Source: a virus (lineage: Duplodnaviria > Heunggongvirae > Uroviricota > Caudoviricetes). From it: a stretch of 22,252 bases of DNA. Both the position numbers and the translations under genes were made by a program. This document shows, piece after piece, positions 2,090 through 10,791 of the stretch (its first letter is position 1; every line of letters begins with the position of its first letter). The stretch is from IMG/VR virus record IMGVR_UViG_2693429719_000008, positions 1-22,252 of that record; one strand, written 5' to 3'. The notes beneath the pieces were generated by a model, which saw only the letters and a list, made by a program, of their open reading frames with translations, searched no databases and had not been told where the DNA came from.

Positions 2090-2300
2090 TGTTCATTCCA
2101 CGGACAAAAACAGAGAAAGGAAACGACAGAGGCTAAAAAGCCCGTTTTCAGCACCTGTCGTTTCCTTTCTTTTCAGGGGGGGTTTTAAATAAAAACATTA
2201 GGTTACGGCGAAGAAGAACGGAAACGCCTTAAACCGGAAAATTTTCATAAATAGCGAAAACCCGCGCGCCTTCCGCCCCGTAACGTTCTGGATCGCCGGA
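2090..2300. other. cos region (cosB, cosN, cosQ side); cohesive-end 12-mer equivalent at 2267-2278
   Basis: RC of 2161-2266 matches the first ~110 nt of the lambda left end (CGCGGGTTTTCGCTATTTATGAAAATTTTCCGG...); the cosN flank CGTTACG is present at 2279-2285. Confidence 0.75.
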
Positions 2301-3242: not shown

Positions 3243-3782
3243 TTATGATTTTTCGATCATTTTTATTACATTTTTGGCTGGCTTAATTTTCATCGTATCG
3301 CCGGTAGCAAGGTGCACAAGCAACATTAATTTGCGAACGTTGCCGCCCTGTTCCCATATCTTATTTTTCATATCTCTGGCCCAGTCGCCATTAGTATCAT
3401 TTTGAATAAAGAAAAATGCATATTCGCCATGCTCAATTTTTTTTGGTAAATCGTCACCAAACCCACCCCCCAGAATCTGAAGTAGTGAGTTTTTTGTACC
3501 GAACGTCCATGTTACTGAAGTTATAGTTGCGGTTTGAATGCCAACATTTGCAATGTTGATCGTAACTCCAAACGTGCTCACATTTTGGCCTGTGATGCCC
3601 CCAAGCGATACTGTTCCTCTTAACTTCGGTCGAGGTCGACGGTTAGAAATATATAAAGTCAGGCATACTGCCATAAAGGTTGCAATGCCTGAAAACCACG
3701 TTCCTACCATTGACCAAAAAGCCCATTCTGCTGTATTTCTAGTGGCAACCAATGATTCGTAAGCTATATAATCTGCGTTCAT
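3243..3782 (-). CDS. Single-pass membrane protein, function unknown; start uncertain (ATG at 3782 with GAGGTG RBS, or ATG at 3824)
   Basis: AT-rich coding region; the track ORF extends to 3986 through GC-rich DNA that is probably not coding. N-terminal hydrophobic segment AEWAFWSMVGTWFSGIATFMAVCLTLYI followed by a ~130-aa soluble part. Confidence 0.45.
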   Translation of the reverse strand: MNADYIAYESLVATRNTAEWAFWSMVGTWFSGIATFMAVCLTLYISNRRPRPKLRGTVSLGGITGQNVSTFGVTINIANVGIQTATITSVTWTFGTKNSLLQILGGGFGDDLPKKIEHGEYAFFFIQNDTNGDWARDMKNKIWEQGGNVRKLMLLVHLATGDTMKIKPAKNVIKMIEKS

Positions 3783-4100
3783 CTTCACCTCATTTATCGA
3801 TGAAGTGATTGTAACTAAAAGCATTATCGCAAGCACTAAGTGAATGCCAACCACACTCTCGCAGTAGCTGCGCTCATTCCCTTGAGGCCATGTGTCAGGG
3901 GTATCTCGTGAATCCCTCACCACTAACCGGAAGCTGACTGGCGACCAGCCTGGAGTACCGGTGCGCTTCTTCCCGTTACCCCTCACCAGTACGCCCTCAG
4001 CTTTTTACCTGAGACTGGCTACCCGCAACTTTGGGTATTCGGGGCAGCATCATGACTGCTGCATTGGCGCCACTTGCCACGGTCCGTCCGCTTTACTGCT

Positions 4101-4358
4101 TCATAGCTTGATCCTCTCTGCTTCAATTTTTCGAATATCAGCTTTATCTCGGTTACAGGTCGCCAGCGCGGAAAGCAGACTGACATTCAAATCCAGACTG
4201 CCCCCATAGGTCAGCGGATCAGGAATAACTGGTTGTGGGGTCTCAGTGGTCAGATTCGCCGGTAGCGGTACCGCTGGAACTGGTACGTAAACTGTCCGCG
4301 TACCGGCGCAGCCGTTCAGCTGCACGAGCAGGAACAGGACGGGCAGCGCAATCATCAT
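4101..4358 (-). CDS. o-spanin (Rz1-like outer-membrane lipoprotein), overlapping the 3' end of the i-spanin gene in another frame
   Basis: Internal start MMIALPVLFLLVQLNGC gives a lipoprotein-type signal with Cys, followed by a proline-rich mature part (VPVPAVPLPANLTTETPQPVIPDP). Confidence 0.6.
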   Translation of the reverse strand: MMIALPVLFLLVQLNGCAGTRTVYVPVPAVPLPANLTTETPQPVIPDPLTYGGSLDLNVSLLSALATCNRDKADIRKIEAERIKL

Positions 4359-4635
4359 TCGCAACAGCCGTTTTGATATCTGTCTGGGTTCTCTGTGACT
4401 CCAGTGCAATCTGCTGTTTTGCATGCTGGCTAGCCTCCAGAACTGTATTGACGATTTGCAGTGATTGCAGGACGTTATTGGTAATGACAGTTGTCGATTT
4501 GGCATTTTGTACAGCCTCATCAGCACGTTTCTTTTCGTGCTGATATTTGCTGTAGTAGTGGTTGGCAGACCAGATGAAAGAACCGATGACAGTAACGAGA
4601 AAAGCAGCGATAACCAGCTTATAGCTCAACTTCAT
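4243..4635 (-). CDS. i-spanin (Rz-like)
   Basis: 130 aa with N-terminal TM (LVIAAFLVTVIGSFIW) then coiled-coil-like sequence; sits directly after the endolysin with an embedded/overlapping lipoprotein ORF. Confidence 0.7.
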   Translation of the reverse strand: MKLSYKLVIAAFLVTVIGSFIWSANHYYSKYQHEKKRADEAVQNAKSTTVITNNVLQSLQIVNTVLEASQHAKQQIALESQRTQTDIKTAVANDDCAARPVPARAAERLRRYADSLRTSSSGTATGESDH

Positions 4636-5095
4636 TTACCACCCCACCAGCCTCTTTAAATCGGGAAATCAGGTCACCGATTTTATGTTCATACTGACCG
4701 TAACCTGCTCCGGGTAACGAAGCCCAGATATTGCTGCAACAGTCGATTGCCTGACGGATGTCACCGCGATCAATCATTAGTAAAGCACCACGCTCCTTAA
4801 TCTGCTGCAATGCAACAGCATCCTGGCTTTTAGGAGAGAAGTCTGTCAGCCCTAACTGCTTGCGGTAAGCATCCCACCAGCGTGAAAGAAGTTGATAACG
4901 GCCTGCGGCTGTTGATTTGAGTTTCGGGTTTAGCGTGACAAGTTTTCGAGGGTGATCGGAGTAATCAGTGAAGAGTTCGCCACCGACAATAACGTCATAA
5001 CCGCGGTTACGTGTCGGTTGTCGCCCGTTATCCGTTCCTTCTGACCACGCCAACATATCGAGGAAAGCTTTACGCTGAGGATTAAGATTTTGCAT
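4619..5095 (-). CDS. R: Endolysin, lambda R-type lytic transglycosylase
   Basis: 158 aa ...NPQRKAFLDMLAWSEGTDNGRQ...YDVIVGGELFTDYSDHPRKLVTLNPKLKST...GRYQLLSRWWDAYRKQLGL... closely matches lambda R as I recall it. Confidence 0.9.
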   Translation of the reverse strand: MQNLNPQRKAFLDMLAWSEGTDNGRQPTRNRGYDVIVGGELFTDYSDHPRKLVTLNPKLKSTAAGRYQLLSRWWDAYRKQLGLTDFSPKSQDAVALQQIKERGALLMIDRGDIRQAIDCCSNIWASLPGAGYGQYEHKIGDLISRFKEAGGVVNEVEL

Positions 5096-5399
5096 TTTTC
5101 ACCCCTGTCAGTCGTTCCCAGAAGTACGTCAGTGCAACCGAGCCCATCGCACCACTAATCCCCGCTGTCGCGAGAATCATGTAAATACTGAATCCACTTT
5201 CGATACTGATCAGGCCACCAATAACACCGGTGAATCCCGATACCACTATCTGAGCCAGAGCATTTATCCAGCTCCACGTTGCTTTACTTTGCTTCACATC
5301 TATCAGATAGCGGACCAAACCGCCCCAACCTGCGATGATCAGCAAAACGAGCCAGAACGCTCCGGCAAGGCTCTCTTTTTCGTGCATATGAATAGCCAA
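5082..5399 (-). CDS. Holin (three predicted TM segments, dual-Met N-terminus MAIHM)
   Basis: 105 aa with three hydrophobic stretches, immediately upstream of and overlapping the endolysin gene; not lambda S by sequence. Confidence 0.7.
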   Translation of the reverse strand: MAIHMHEKESLAGAFWLVLLIIAGWGGLVRYLIDVKQSKATWSWINALAQIVVSGFTGVIGGLISIESGFSIYMILATAGISGAMGSVALTYFWERLTGVKNAKS

Positions 5400-5615
5400 T
5401 GTTTCGCCGCCGACGAAAGGCCGGGACGCTAATGATTAAAAACTTACATGGGAAATATTGTTATAAACAGTCAACTCAAAATAACTAAAAAATCTTATAA
5501 CTAAGCGAATGGCCTTCAAAAGCCGATCCATGCAACTTGCATAAAACGATCTTTATCAATGAGTTACATGTGTGGTTAAATACCATGCTTTAAGGACTAA
5601 GAGCATTACCAGCAG

Positions 5616-6419
5616 ATGACAGAAAAAGATAACATTGGTAAGTTAATTTGGCATATTGCTTGCGATGAATCTGGCATTGATGGGCAACGTTTCTACGGCT
5701 TTGGCAGTCTGTGGATGAAGTACCAACGCCGTGGGGATTTCTGTCAACTAATCAGAGAACTACGCAGCAAACATGGTTTTTTTGAAGAAATAAAATGGCA
5801 AAAAGCCCATTCAAAAAGATACTCTGAATTTTATCTTGAGCTGATCGACTTATTCTTTAGAGTTCCTTGGCTAGCTTTTCATTGTATCGTGGTTGAAAAA
5901 TCAATAGTAAACAAGACATTTCATAATGGGGATTATGACCTGGCAAGGAGAAAGCACTTCACAAATCTCATTACCACAAAAATTAGCTCTGTAATTTCTG
6001 CACACCCTGAAAGAGACAGTTACTTCAGGATTGAAGTTGATCCTATCGCATCTCGTTATAAAAAGGCCGATGAAGAACTAAATGTTATTGCCAATAACAT
6101 ATTGAATAGAAAATTTGGTCGTAAAGGGATAATCAGCAGTGTAGTGACAAAAGACTCTAAAGCATCTGAAAACATTCAGCTAGCCGATTTTTTCTTAGGT
6201 GCGGTTATGTGCGCATATCAAGGAAAAGCTTCATCTGAAGCCAAAATAAGAGTATCAAACTATGTTGCTTCATATTTAGGCTGGGATCATTTGCAATATG
6301 ATACATGGCACACTGAGAGAAAATTTAATATCTGGTATTTTTATGATAAAACTCGAGGGTCACGAGATATAGAAACTCAAAATGTTAGCTTAAAGTATCC
6401 ACTTCCCCAAAAGAAATAG
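5616..6419 (+). CDS. DUF3800-like protein, cargo gene of unknown function
   Basis: 267 aa with N-terminal HIACDESGIDG and C-terminal NIQLADFFLG motifs that I associate with DUF3800; lies in an AT-rich island with its own upstream AT-rich region. Confidence 0.6.
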   Translation: MTEKDNIGKLIWHIACDESGIDGQRFYGFGSLWMKYQRRGDFCQLIRELRSKHGFFEEIKWQKAHSKRYSEFYLELIDLFFRVPWLAFHCIVVEKSIVNKTFHNGDYDLARRKHFTNLITTKISSVISAHPERDSYFRIEVDPIASRYKKADEELNVIANNILNRKFGRKGIISSVVTKDSKASENIQLADFFLGAVMCAYQGKASSEAKIRVSNYVASYLGWDHLQYDTWHTERKFNIWYFYDKTRGSRDIETQNVSLKYPLPQKK

Positions 6420-6538
6420 ACGTCGACCTCTCAGCCGACACGGTTGGAGTCCCAGACCAATTATCGAGTCGAAGTTACCAACTTGGCGGTTATCTTTTGG
6501 GAGCCGCCCCTTCATTCCCAAAACCTTTATTGCAGAAA

Positions 6539-6567
6539 AATCTATATCCTGGAAATTGGATAGTCAA
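6539..6567 (-). promoter_or_regulatory. Candidate late promoter (pR'-like)
   Basis: On the minus strand TTGACT, 17-nt spacer, TAGATT, about 75 nt downstream of the Q-like stop. Confidence 0.35.
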
Positions 6568-6640
6568 CCCTTACGACACCTACGAACAGTTGCACATACA
6601 ACATTGGCAAAATATCAGATTTACACGGAATATATGCCTT

Positions 6641-7330
6641 TCAATCCAGTTTTGCAATACTTTGCTGTGAAAATGTCGTCTTTTGTTTTGAACGTGTTCT
6701 CGTTACAAGCAATAAAGCTTCGCTATCAAGCTGTAGAAAAATGTGCTTCATTGCAACCCAGCGTTCAGTAAATGTCTCAGACCAGTTTTTTGATGTCACT
6801 CCCACCAGTGATGCCAGCTCCTGGTATTCATAGGTCTTACGCCCTGCCAGCTCGTTCTTCACATCCTGTGCCGCCAGCCAGATCAACTTCTTCAAACGTT
6901 CCAGTGTCTTACCTGCAATTTTTCTGGTACCCAACAGAGTCTTAAACTCGCTCCATGCCCACTGCGTTATGGTGACCTGATGTTCCCAGCGAACACTTTC
7001 GCTGTAACTCCACAGCAACCACGCTTTCTGATGTTCTTCGAGAGACAGAACCGCGCGGCGCCATGACGAGGTTGAGAACTCAACCTGGCTTACCAGTGCA
7101 ATGGATGAACCTTTTGCGTACGACTGCTTACCGGAAATCGGCGGATTATCCAGCGTAATCATCCTGCCAGTTACCTCATCCAGAATGCGCAGCTTCTTTC
7201 GTTTGTATGTACCAGTATCAAATTGTGCATGCTCCAGCCAGGCTTCAAGCTGTCCTTTCGTTGCTCCGCTCAAATCAGCGGTAGCCACAATGAGTTGCTC
7301 GCGGACATACTGTAAATATTGGGTATTCAT
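6641..7330 (-). CDS. Putative late-gene antiterminator, Q-position protein (long cysteine-free type)
   Basis: 229-aa ORF in the Q slot between ylcG/rusA and the lysis genes; start overlaps the ylcG-like stop; contains no Cys, so it is not a lambda/82/21 zinc-finger Q. Assignment is mainly positional. Confidence 0.4.
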   Translation of the reverse strand: MNTQYLQYVREQLIVATADLSGATKGQLEAWLEHAQFDTGTYKRKKLRILDEVTGRMITLDNPPISGKQSYAKGSSIALVSQVEFSTSSWRRAVLSLEEHQKAWLLWSYSESVRWEHQVTITQWAWSEFKTLLGTRKIAGKTLERLKKLIWLAAQDVKNELAGRKTYEYQELASLVGVTSKNWSETFTERWVAMKHIFLQLDSEALLLVTRTRSKQKTTFSQQSIAKLD

Positions 7331-7467
7331 GCGGCAGCTCCTTTCAGTGTTTTGGCGTAATTCTTCAGTATCCGGTAATCGGTCAAAACAGAACCAGGAA
7401 AACGATATAAGCGCAGGCGCACCCAGCGGCGGCGAAGACGCTCTGCCATATAAGACTCAAACATCAT
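7327..7467 (-). CDS. ylcG: YlcG-like small protein (46 aa)
   Basis: Hand-translated [46 protein letters not shown]; ATG overlaps the rusA stop and its stop overlaps the Q-like ATG; matches the DLP12 rusA-ylcG-Q order. Below the ORF-track size cutoff. Confidence 0.45.
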
Positions 7468-8941: not shown

Positions 8942-9574
8942 TCAGGCCTTGGAAAGCTTGAGCTTACCCTTTACGTGCAGAGTGTTAATTAACCAGAAGG
9001 CCCCGAGCAAACACATACAATGCGCGCTAGTGACTAACTTACAAATACGAATGCGATTTTCTTCAAGATCAGGAGGTAGCTCTTTCATCAACGCTATAGC
9101 GTAGATTCCATCCTTGAGAATTGGCTCAACAACTTGATGCACGTAGCCACCATGGTTAATCTCTTCTAACTTTATGTTTTTAATCGATTCTGCGAGTTTA
9201 TCAACCTCTTCATTTGTAATTACATATTCAATTTTATGAGCGTACTTGTTACGTATTGTGTTGAGCTCAGCCATAGCGTCTGCAAGCGAGACAGGAAGCC
9301 CTAACAGAACTGCGGCAGACAGCTTTGACGCAAAATACTTATAGCTTCTTATCGAATTGTATTTTTCAGAGCCATCAGGTCGTAAGTTTTCAATAACAAC
9401 CCGAAGAAAGTCCTCATGAATTAGCATCAATTTTAATAGCGCGGCAGACTCATCCTCATAGTTAGCTATCGAGGCCATTTTATTAAGATCTAGAAAATAG
9501 CCAAAGTCATGATCGATTTTCACGTAGTTACCCTCATCCGTTGTTGGACTTTGTTCAATTCGAGAGAATTTCAT
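8942..9574 (-). CDS. Hypothetical protein with a possible HEPN-type Rx4H motif; candidate effector of the nin cargo cassette
   Basis: 210 aa, AT-rich; contains NTIRNKYAHK (R-x4-H); predicted mostly helical; start ATG overlaps the stop of an upstream 58-aa ORF. Confidence 0.5.
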   Translation of the reverse strand: MKFSRIEQSPTTDEGNYVKIDHDFGYFLDLNKMASIANYEDESAALLKLMLIHEDFLRVVIENLRPDGSEKYNSIRSYKYFASKLSAAVLLGLPVSLADAMAELNTIRNKYAHKIEYVITNEEVDKLAESIKNIKLEEINHGGYVHQVVEPILKDGIYAIALMKELPPDLEENRIRICKLVTSAHCMCLLGAFWLINTLHVKGKLKLSKA

Positions 9575-10521: not shown

Positions 10522-10676
10522 GGTGATTACCTATAAATCAAGTTAACCACCACCGCTGACGCCAATCAGTTTGGTGGTGAGACATGTAGGGTTGGCGTAA
10601 CCGGGGTAATCAACCGGCCCGACCGAAGTCGGCCCTACACGCCCCACCATAATTCAGATGTGCGTATGCTTACGAC

Positions 10677-10701
10677 AATAAAAAACACGCTCGCGGCGTG
10701 T
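10677..10701 (-). terminator. Rho-independent terminator for minus-strand (lambda-rightward) transcription
   Basis: Minus-strand ACACGC-CGCGA-GCGTGT hairpin followed by TTTTTATT. Confidence 0.6.
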
Positions 10702-10791
10702 AGTAGTCGCGATTACCTTATCCGGGACGCCAATCCCGTGTGCCGATTTTGCGGCAACGCGTAAGAATATATCCCCAGATAAATCATATCG

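Follow-up and report, generated by a model that had tools for sequence, protein, structure and literature searches.

An imported DUF3800 gene and a lambda 6S-like RNA gene in the late leader of a phage-82-type prophage of Escherichia coli

A foreign segment between Q and the holin gene

This report concerns a segment lying between the Q antiterminator gene and the holin gene of a lambdoid Escherichia coli prophage, contained in the virus record IMGVR_UViG_2693429719_000008 of IMG/VR (positions 1 to 22,252; this whole stretch is the window referred to below). According to gene calls and family scans of the window, the late genes of the prophage run on the minus strand. The segment, positions 5433-6596, is an imported, self-contained two-gene moron within the late leader of a phage-82-type prophage. 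One gene is an open reading frame (ORF) of 267 amino acids (aa) on the plus strand, antisense to both Q and holin, that encodes a protein of the DUF3800 family. The other, on the minus strand, is a gene for a structured RNA resembling the core of lambda 6S RNA. The features of the segment and its borders are as follows.

5082..5399, minus strand: holin gene, the first late gene beyond the module (PF16083, phrog_785)
5433..5540, no strand: AT-rich spacer from the holin start to the DUF3800 promoter block, absent from phage PhiR47_2 and part of the imported segment
5541..5586, plus strand: conserved block, putative DUF3800 promoter, from an upstream alignment of 22 homologous loci
5616..6419, plus strand: DUF3800 gene, 267 aa, predicted RNase H2-like nuclease (Pfam, PADLOC, PHROG, motifs)
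6409..6419, minus strand: U-rich run after the hairpin P1', complementary to the last, Lys-rich codons and the stop of DUF3800
6420..6525, minus strand: 6S-like structured RNA of about 105 nt (covariation; homology to the lambda 6S core)
6539..6567, minus strand: putative promoter of the 6S-like RNA, TTGACT-17-TAGATT (scan match and conserved position)
6597..6657, minus strand: phage-82-type pR' with its initial transcribed/pause region (promoter scan; co-conserved with Q)
6641..7330, minus strand: Q antiterminator gene, phage 82 family (PF06323, E 6e-95)

A sequence-only reading of this DNA had described an AT-rich antisense gene between a Q-like gene and holin, and such a gene is indeed present. 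The G+C content is 0.34-0.41 over positions 5400-6400 and about 0.50 on either side. The limits of the segment were found by comparison with phage PhiR47_2, an island-free phage having the same Q and holin. Homology to PhiR47_2 spans window positions 5000-5432 and 6597-7400 only, and therefore 5433-6596 (1164 bp) replaces 232 bp. The island proposed from sequence, 5400-6780, is thus a foreign segment as claimed, of narrower extent. Its junction lies 44 nt beyond the Q stop codon, and the cognate pR' starts 25 nt upstream of it. The island was found in 63 of 5426 complete E. coli genomes, in full length in 44 of them; a 99.9% identical lysogen is E. coli SCU-301 (NZ_CP051751). The spacer is also kept beside holin in IS1-truncated copies within Rac-like remnants; we considered a spacer without the gene as a natural variant and rejected it, since such copies are these IS1 truncations.

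The Q gene is 98.4% identical in nucleotide sequence to that of phage 82 (X92588), up to the stop codon, and thus the low G+C of its 3' end is native. At the protein level the identity is 98% to phage 82, 97% to PhiR47_2 and 88% to 434, with the last 45 residues included (protein alignment A3). By these alignments Q is intact and its C-terminus is native. The proposal that the island had replaced the 3' end of Q is contradicted by the near-identity with phage 82 Q through the last codon. Nor is the C-terminus special to phages with the island, as the island-free PhiR47_2 and 434 share it, an outcome that had been named in advance as speaking against the proposal.

A phage-82-type Q module consists of the PF06323 protein and a co-inherited promoter-proximal region, and both are present here. 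The promoter, TTGCAA-17-TATATT (−35 at 6657-6652, −10 at 6634-6629), overlaps the Q stop codon and has a predicted transcription start near 6622. Both this promoter and about 25 nt of the initial transcribed sequence are conserved in PhiR47_2 (as far as 6597), and largely in 434, after which the similarity ends abruptly. We take 6657-6629 to be the pR' of phage 82, for which work of the Roberts laboratory described a promoter-proximal pause at +25. Our literature search found no paper printing the phage 82 pR' sequence, and this assignment draws on conservation.

Upstream of the DUF3800 gene, a block of about 45 nt is the sole stretch conserved among 22 enterobacterial loci, and the flanks are otherwise unrelated. 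It reads AAACGATCTTTATCAA, then N, then TGnTTAAAT, which can be read as a −35 element (TTATCA, 5553-5558), a 17-nt spacer and an extended −10 (TG, 5573-5574; TTAAAT, 5576-5581), together at 5553-5581. This block is probably the gene's own promoter, with a start near 5588, in agreement with the earlier suggestion that the antisense gene has an upstream promoter region of its own. A GATC (Dam site, 5548-5551) upstream of the −35 is kept in nearly all homologues, even where adjacent bases vary.

The same site, between Q/pR' and holin, is occupied by stx in Stx phages and by the post-Q membrane-protein morons of phage 434. That cargo lies on the late strand and is expressed via Q read-through, whereas the DUF3800 gene is antisense and has its own putative promoter. 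Expression in the lysogen, and silence once the prophage is induced, would therefore be predicted for it.

A structured RNA related to lambda 6S RNA

A covariance model (R1) built from the DUF3800-linked copies of the RNA, with lambda left out, matches lambda at 44607-44717 on the late strand (66.5 bits, E 6e-22), or about +20 to +130 of the 194-nt 6S RNA. On the strength of this match, the window RNA is homologous to the core of lambda 6S RNA. Lambda 6S RNA has been known since 1971 as the pR' transcript terminated at tR'. It is abundant in lysogens and has no ascribed function (PMC7547250). A blastn search of the element against the phage collection misses lambda, being too insensitive. The paired elements of the window RNA, all on the minus strand, are listed below.

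6441-6420: P1' hairpin with a GAGA (GNRA) loop
6483-6478 with 6447-6442: P2'
6470-6468 with 6457-6455: P3'
6508-6504 with 6489-6485: P4'
6523-6516 with 6502-6495: pseudoknot

The element keeps 83-94% nucleotide identity between loci whose proteins share only 70-86%. The four-helix structure with its pseudoknot is supported by covariation within the alignments. In a sequence-only MAFFT alignment of 44 distinct copies (A2), 90% of the cells are paired and 12 pairs are changed on both sides; none of 500 shuffles reaches the observed values, and sliding the partner columns by 1-3 positions gives at most 52% paired. A wider, model-fitted alignment (A7) has 92% paired and adds G-C/C-G and G-C/A-U exchanges in two helices that were previously invariant. 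At least nine unrelated sequences form the pseudoknot, among them UUUUGGGA/UCCCAAAA, CUCACGG/CCGUGAG and GGGACGCAGG/CCUGCGUCCU. Single-sequence folds of the flanks of the gene are no more stable than those of shuffles, so that only comparative data expose the structure. The RNA is single-copy in all loci. Many copies carry GAUC in the P4 loop (GGCGG-GAUC), and the copy in the window does not.

Searches with the Rfam 15 models at gathering scores, and at E up to 10 over 5250-6800 and 6405-6545, gave no match in the island, nor was any obtained near the distant homologues. Models for DUF3800-I to -XI, drum and skipping-rope are present in Rfam 15, yet none of them match.

Several other descriptions of the element were tried. 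The stretch GGTTGGAGTCC could be read as tRNA- or tmRNA-like, but ARAGORN was negative, and it forms the 5' side of a helix that covaries. An alternative pairing of the 5' part proposed by RNAalifold was set aside, as it draws solely on invariant columns. A reading of the element on the plus strand, as the 3' untranslated region (UTR) of the DUF3800 mRNA, was dropped because the element is also found in loci lacking DUF3800, next to a Q gene on the opposite strand, and within lambda 6S RNA. The strand was assigned mainly from the known lambda transcript, the orientation relative to Q, and the GNRA loop. Read on the late strand, what appeared to be a conserved 10-nt loop in the first hairpin turns into a further three pairs (G.U, C-G and U.G) closed by a G-N-G-A tetraloop, in which N is the sole variable loop base. 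In the lambda pseudoknot there is a G.U on the late strand where the opposite strand would give A.C.

The sequence-only reading had placed a late promoter at 6567-6539 on the minus strand. The site exists; it is not the Q82-cognate pR', which is the promoter at 6657-6629 described above. The sequence in question, REINTERPRETED, is a sigma70-like site found at a fixed distance before the RNA in most DUF3800 loci. Of 46 strict promoter matches in DUF3800 loci, 32 lie at 100-114 nt from the P1' anchor; in lambda-like loci 47 of 56 matches lie at 125-134 nt, where the site is lambda pR' itself. The DNA farther upstream varies, from a terminator-bearing Qlambda-type pR' or Q21-type leader to the Q82 leader of the window or P2-like DNA. 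The fixed position before the RNA thus suggests that TTGACT-17-TAGATT is the promoter of the 6S-like RNA gene, with a predicted start near 6532.

Lambda 6S RNA has the same helices, the same pseudoknot with compensatory changes, and a TTGACT-17-TAxATT promoter directly upstream. Likewise, the window RNA has a putative sigma70 promoter directly upstream on the Q/late strand, and this promoter is homologous to lambda pR' (TTGACT-17-TAAATT) in its place and its −35. However, in lambda the promoter is the Q-loading pR', whereas in the window the putative RNA promoter arrived with the foreign segment and is not the Q82 loading site; the Q82-cognate promoter stands 90 nt farther upstream. The two also differ at the other end, as the lambda 6S transcript continues to a separate tR' and the window RNA is followed at once by the U-run and the antisense DUF3800 gene.

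At this tail-to-tail junction, the P1' hairpin is directly followed on the late strand by CUAUUUCUUUU, and the hairpin together with CTATTTCTTT was returned as a terminator-like scan match. The U-rich tail is specific to the DUF3800-bearing loci, with a mean of 6.1 U per 12 nt versus 2.3. P1' and the U-run would, in the lysogen, end transcripts starting at both 6532 and 6622.

Some RNA-bearing loci deserve separate mention. In L127-L137, L145 and L146, no promoter separates the RNA from the intrinsic terminator that stands directly before it in a lambda-like pR' leader; the 3' strand of the pseudoknot abuts P4 without a linker, and these copies may fold or be expressed differently. In L152, a phage without DUF3800, the RNA element is downstream of a lambda-type pR' bearing the AACGATGGGTTA pause signature, and beyond both is a tRNA-Met gene (2178-2249, minus strand) that recalls the post-Q tRNA genes of Stx phages. 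In L192 and L173 the RNA is near a CI-type repressor gene, and in L221 an ORF for a P2 Ogr-like zinc finger ends 20 nt from it. The annotated lambda orf-64 (44621-44815; L269 822-1016) lies wholly inside the 6S/tR' region and overlaps the structured core, and is unlikely to be a genuine gene.

The DUF3800 protein and the recurrence of the pair

The gene is already annotated in RefSeq as encoding a 'DUF3800 domain-containing protein'. Membership of the family, as proposed from the sequence, is borne out by a PF12686 match above the cut-off (42.6 bits against 21, E 1.3e-10, residues 16-197) and by the two motifs: D17-E18-S-G after a C ('DESG') and Q188-L-A-D191 ('QLAD'). A DE motif near the N-terminus and a QxxD motif near the C-terminus define DUF3800 (PMC7736814). 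D17-E18 and Q188/D191 are invariant in 24 homologues ranging from Enterobacterales to Myxococcota. The protein also matches PHROG 3732, of function unknown (E 5e-135).

An AlphaFold2 model built on the homologue alignment has a predicted local distance difference test score (pLDDT) of 89.8, and we read its fold as RNase H2-like; sequence searches found no solved structural relative. In the model, D17 and E18 are on the first strand, D142 is at the end of strand 4 and D191 is in a helix. All four are invariant in the homologue alignment and, by analogy with RNase H2, they may form a catalytic D-E-D-D set.

DUF3800 has been described as an RNase H-fold nuclease, the effector of type VII retrons and an accessory of Cas12a2/a3 and some Cas13 (PMC7736814, PMC10910872, PMC12669027). 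The retron VII and TPR-DUF3800 relatives share with the window protein the hidden Markov model match, the DE and QxxD motifs and an RNase H2-like predicted fold, and the retron VII and Cas-linked members, like this gene, are linked to mobile elements and defence loci. However, the window protein is single-domain, without a reverse transcriptase, TPR or Cas neighbour, and genes of its kind are prophage morons or integron cassettes. The candidate acidic set also differs, being D-E-D-D here and D-E-E-D as noted for retron VII.

A defence flavour, suspected earlier from the layout around the gene, receives some support from PADLOC, where both models of the candidate system PDC-M04A match (E 7.5e-35 and 1.4e-15). 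The better match, PDLC04353, covers residues 13-243 of 267. PDC-M04 is a multi-gene candidate, whereas the clade of the window protein is without a conserved second protein gene: no conserved protein neighbour was found in 57 genome loci, and the two unassigned ORFs of the window that were scanned gave no PADLOC match. A literature search found no published phenotype for the PDC-M04 candidate.

The RNA lies 3-25 nt past the DUF3800 stop in essentially every prophage-borne relative with at least 62% protein identity (nhmmer; loci with sequence), including P2-like contexts beside gpA. Of 60 non-redundant module-bearing loci, 15 have Qlambda as the nearest sizeable ORF beyond the RNA, 12 have Q21, one has Q82, six have DUF1133, four P2 gpA and four a methylase. 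On the promoter side the first ORF encodes a holin in at least 21 of the 60, with five holin families represented, and on each side the neighbour is on the opposite strand in 49 of the 60. Therefore the pair recurs at the Q-lysis junction, where it is always antisense to the late operon, yet it also travels into P2-like phages. The use of this junction as a cargo site, as the sequence-only reading had it, is thereby supported, across three unrelated Q families. The G+C of the gene is below that of the flanks in all Enterobacterales loci.

At least 11 structured RNAs, unrelated to one another and lying in either orientation, have been found in association with DUF3800 genes (Weinberg 2017, PMC5737381). 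The window pair resembles these (DUF3800-I to -XI, drum and skipping-rope; RF02969, RF02968) in having a complex conserved RNA beside DUF3800, here in a convergent arrangement. It differs in that the RNA has a known transcript as homologue, lambda 6S, and mostly occurs without DUF3800.

In one locus from Xenorhabdus hominickii (L012, 7195-8070), a Tad2-like (Thoeris anti-defence 2) gene stands between a Q21-type gene and the DUF3800/RNA module, and thus counter-defence and candidate defence genes share one cargo site.

Possible roles of the pair, and other features of the window

The main question then is what the two genes do together. The reading that we prefer, at about an even chance of being right, is a two-gene moron consisting of a lysogen-expressed nuclease, a candidate defence effector, and a convergent 6S-like RNA that would be its partner or regulator, the whole being overrun by Q-modified transcription. 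In the lysogen, both promoters of the module would be active. The nuclease would be made, and an RNA of about 115 nt would be produced and would stop at the P1' hairpin and U-run against the DUF3800 stop. The nuclease would then act as an effector against incoming phages or other mobile DNA, and its likely substrates, by analogy with RNase H2, PIWI and the retron type VII DUF3800 effectors, would be RNA/DNA hybrids or structured RNA. The RNA would most likely serve as a regulator or antidote, either by pairing with the 3' UTR of DUF3800 or by binding the protein. Upon induction, polymerase modified by Q82 at 6657-6629 would cross the RNA gene, then the DUF3800 gene in antisense, and reach holin. 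Such overrun would shut down the nuclease gene, so that the silencing by convergent late transcription suggested in the sequence-only reading is plausible, and would flood the cell with the RNA.

Several findings weigh against this reading. In a pattern scan, the RNA occurred without DUF3800 in 59 of 80 metagenomic and 70 of 80 viral loci, and together with it in only 21 of 80 and 10 of 80; lambda has the RNA alone. The RNA is therefore far commoner than the pairing and has a life of its own. Homologues of the protein with 64-68% identity are found as integron cassettes in Vibrio, Colwellia, Psychromonas, Salinivibrio and Ferrimonas (L018, L022-L028, L066), where attC-like repeats (...TAACAAG ... 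GCGTTA...) stand directly past the stop and again upstream. These cassettes carry no 6S-like RNA and have no room for one, so the protein cannot strictly need the RNA. In the subgroup L127-L137, a terminator lies directly before the RNA and no promoter between them. The counts of G-U versus A-C over the remaining pairs do not alone decide the strand of the RNA. No canonical tR' was seen in the window by promoter and terminator scan or by leader comparison. Finally, the defence role is a candidate one, drawn from a PADLOC 'candidate' model and from guilt by location.

In the viral loci with the RNA, Q is about 200 nt away and on the same late strand as the RNA in 54 of 80. No attC sites flank the ORF of the window. 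In two loci, AT-rich ORFs take the place of DUF3800 at 100-175 nt from the RNA, one of 174 aa in L214 (2657-3181) and one of 152 aa in L175 (10805-11263); neither has a Pfam match.

The first alternative, which is possible and clearly the less probable of the two, is that the DUF3800 protein is a stand-alone nuclease expressed in the lysogen for defence or exclusion. Its contact with the RNA would then be historical, going back to a single landing at the 3' end of a late-leader RNA, and the pair would have spread by recombination with the conserved RNA as a homology arm. The prevalence of RNA-only loci, lambda included, would be expected on these grounds, as would the RNA-less integron cassettes, the failure to find a conserved protein partner and the presence of other ORFs beside the same RNA in L214 and L175. 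Less easily explained are the junction of 3-25 nt, which persists although protein identity falls to 62%, the occurrence of the pair outside Q contexts in P2-like phages, and the dedicated RNA promoter, which is held at a fixed position even beyond the phage's own pR'-tR'. The documented association of DUF3800 with non-coding RNAs in general (PMC5737381) also speaks for a functional link.

If, instead, DUF3800 were a toxic nuclease and the constitutive pseudoknotted RNA its antidote, the pair would be a toxin-antitoxin or abortive infection system, in which the loss of RNA synthesis upon infection releases the nuclease. The antidote could be type III-like, with the RNA binding the protein, or type I-like, with the RNA antisense to the 3' UTR (cf. 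RalR/RalA, TxpA/RatA). The tail-to-tail layout with abutting or overlapping 3' ends and a shared hairpin would suit such a system, and so would an RNA with a putative promoter of its own and a pseudoknot, and the abundance of lambda 6S RNA in lysogens (PMC7547250). Compared with type III systems (ToxIN-like), the pseudoknot is present; however, the RNA is single-copy where these have tandem antitoxin repeats, and the toxin fold differs. Nor is the protein the small membrane peptide that a type I toxin would be, and the RNA-less cassettes of close homologues would be lethal if the protein were constitutively toxic. We regard this explanation as rather unlikely.

Two further possibilities seem to us very improbable, and equally so. 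A selfish, homing-type nuclease that cuts related phage DNA at or near the leader-RNA gene and is copied there by repair would account for the fixed junction and the patchy distribution, and an AT-rich gene with a putative promoter of its own, intergenic beside highly conserved sequence and sporadic among otherwise near-identical prophages, has that appearance; but no homing endonuclease is known to have the RNase H2/PIWI-like fold, members of the same family are integron cassettes and CRISPR and retron accessories, and in the window 232 bp are replaced where a clean insertion would be expected. A phage housekeeping enzyme, RNase H-like, that removes R-loops or processes leader RNA and thereby adjusts basal read-through from pR' and the time of lysis, would fit a gene placed exactly in the late leader, its RNase H2 similarity and the window's want of a visible canonical tR', but most lambdoid phages lack the DUF3800 gene and the family is widespread outside phage late regions.

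The association of DUF3800 with structured RNAs was already reported in 2017, and the Q-lysis junction is a classic place for cargo. Compared with the literature searched, three points appear to be new. The RNA of this DUF3800 clade is of the lambda 6S type, with a putative promoter of its own, convergent with the gene and abutting it. Lambda 6S RNA itself belongs to a widespread family, absent from Rfam 15, with a pseudoknotted structure supported by covariation. The pair also recurs across three unrelated Q families.

A bolder proposal, to which we attach little probability, is that lambda 6S represents a widespread family of pseudoknotted RNAs that are the cognate partners of DUF3800 proteins, and are not a by-product of antitermination. 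If so, the RNA would keep the nuclease in check, and a prophage with both genes would gain self-immunity as late transcription floods the cell with RNA; phages with the RNA only, such as lambda, would use it as a decoy against DUF3800-based exclusion by resident prophages.

DUF3800 is a large RNase H-fold family of unknown function that recurs near structured RNAs, retrons and CRISPR effectors. With a DUF3800 gene and a relative of lambda 6S RNA side by side in tractable E. coli prophages, two outstanding questions can therefore be addressed with standard lambda genetics, namely what DUF3800 nucleases do with their RNAs and whether lambda 6S RNA has a function. In addition, the module offers a concrete case of a moron that, from its arrangement, should be expressed in the lysogen and then shut off by late transcription dependent on Q.

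Beyond holin, the lysis genes continue on the late strand.

4243..4635, minus strand: Rz-like gene
4619..5095, minus strand: lysozyme gene

Elsewhere in the window, the nin region contains a second AT-rich patch (G+C 0.38-0.43) with a 210-aa ORF (8942-9574, minus strand) that is possibly a further moron; it matches phrog_5712, of function unknown (E 7e-65), and has no Pfam or PADLOC match. A 247-aa ORF (3243-3986, minus strand; G+C about 0.40-0.44) with predicted membrane segments separates the lysis cassette from the packaging genes; for this ORF no Pfam or PADLOC match was obtained and the PHROG matches are weak. Two Rfam families match side by side at gathering scores on the minus strand, C4 antisense RNA at 10570-10654 (74 bits) and isrK at 10680-10756 (61 bits), and together (10570-10756) they form an ant/immunity-type RNA region resembling those of P1/P7 and Gifsy-1.

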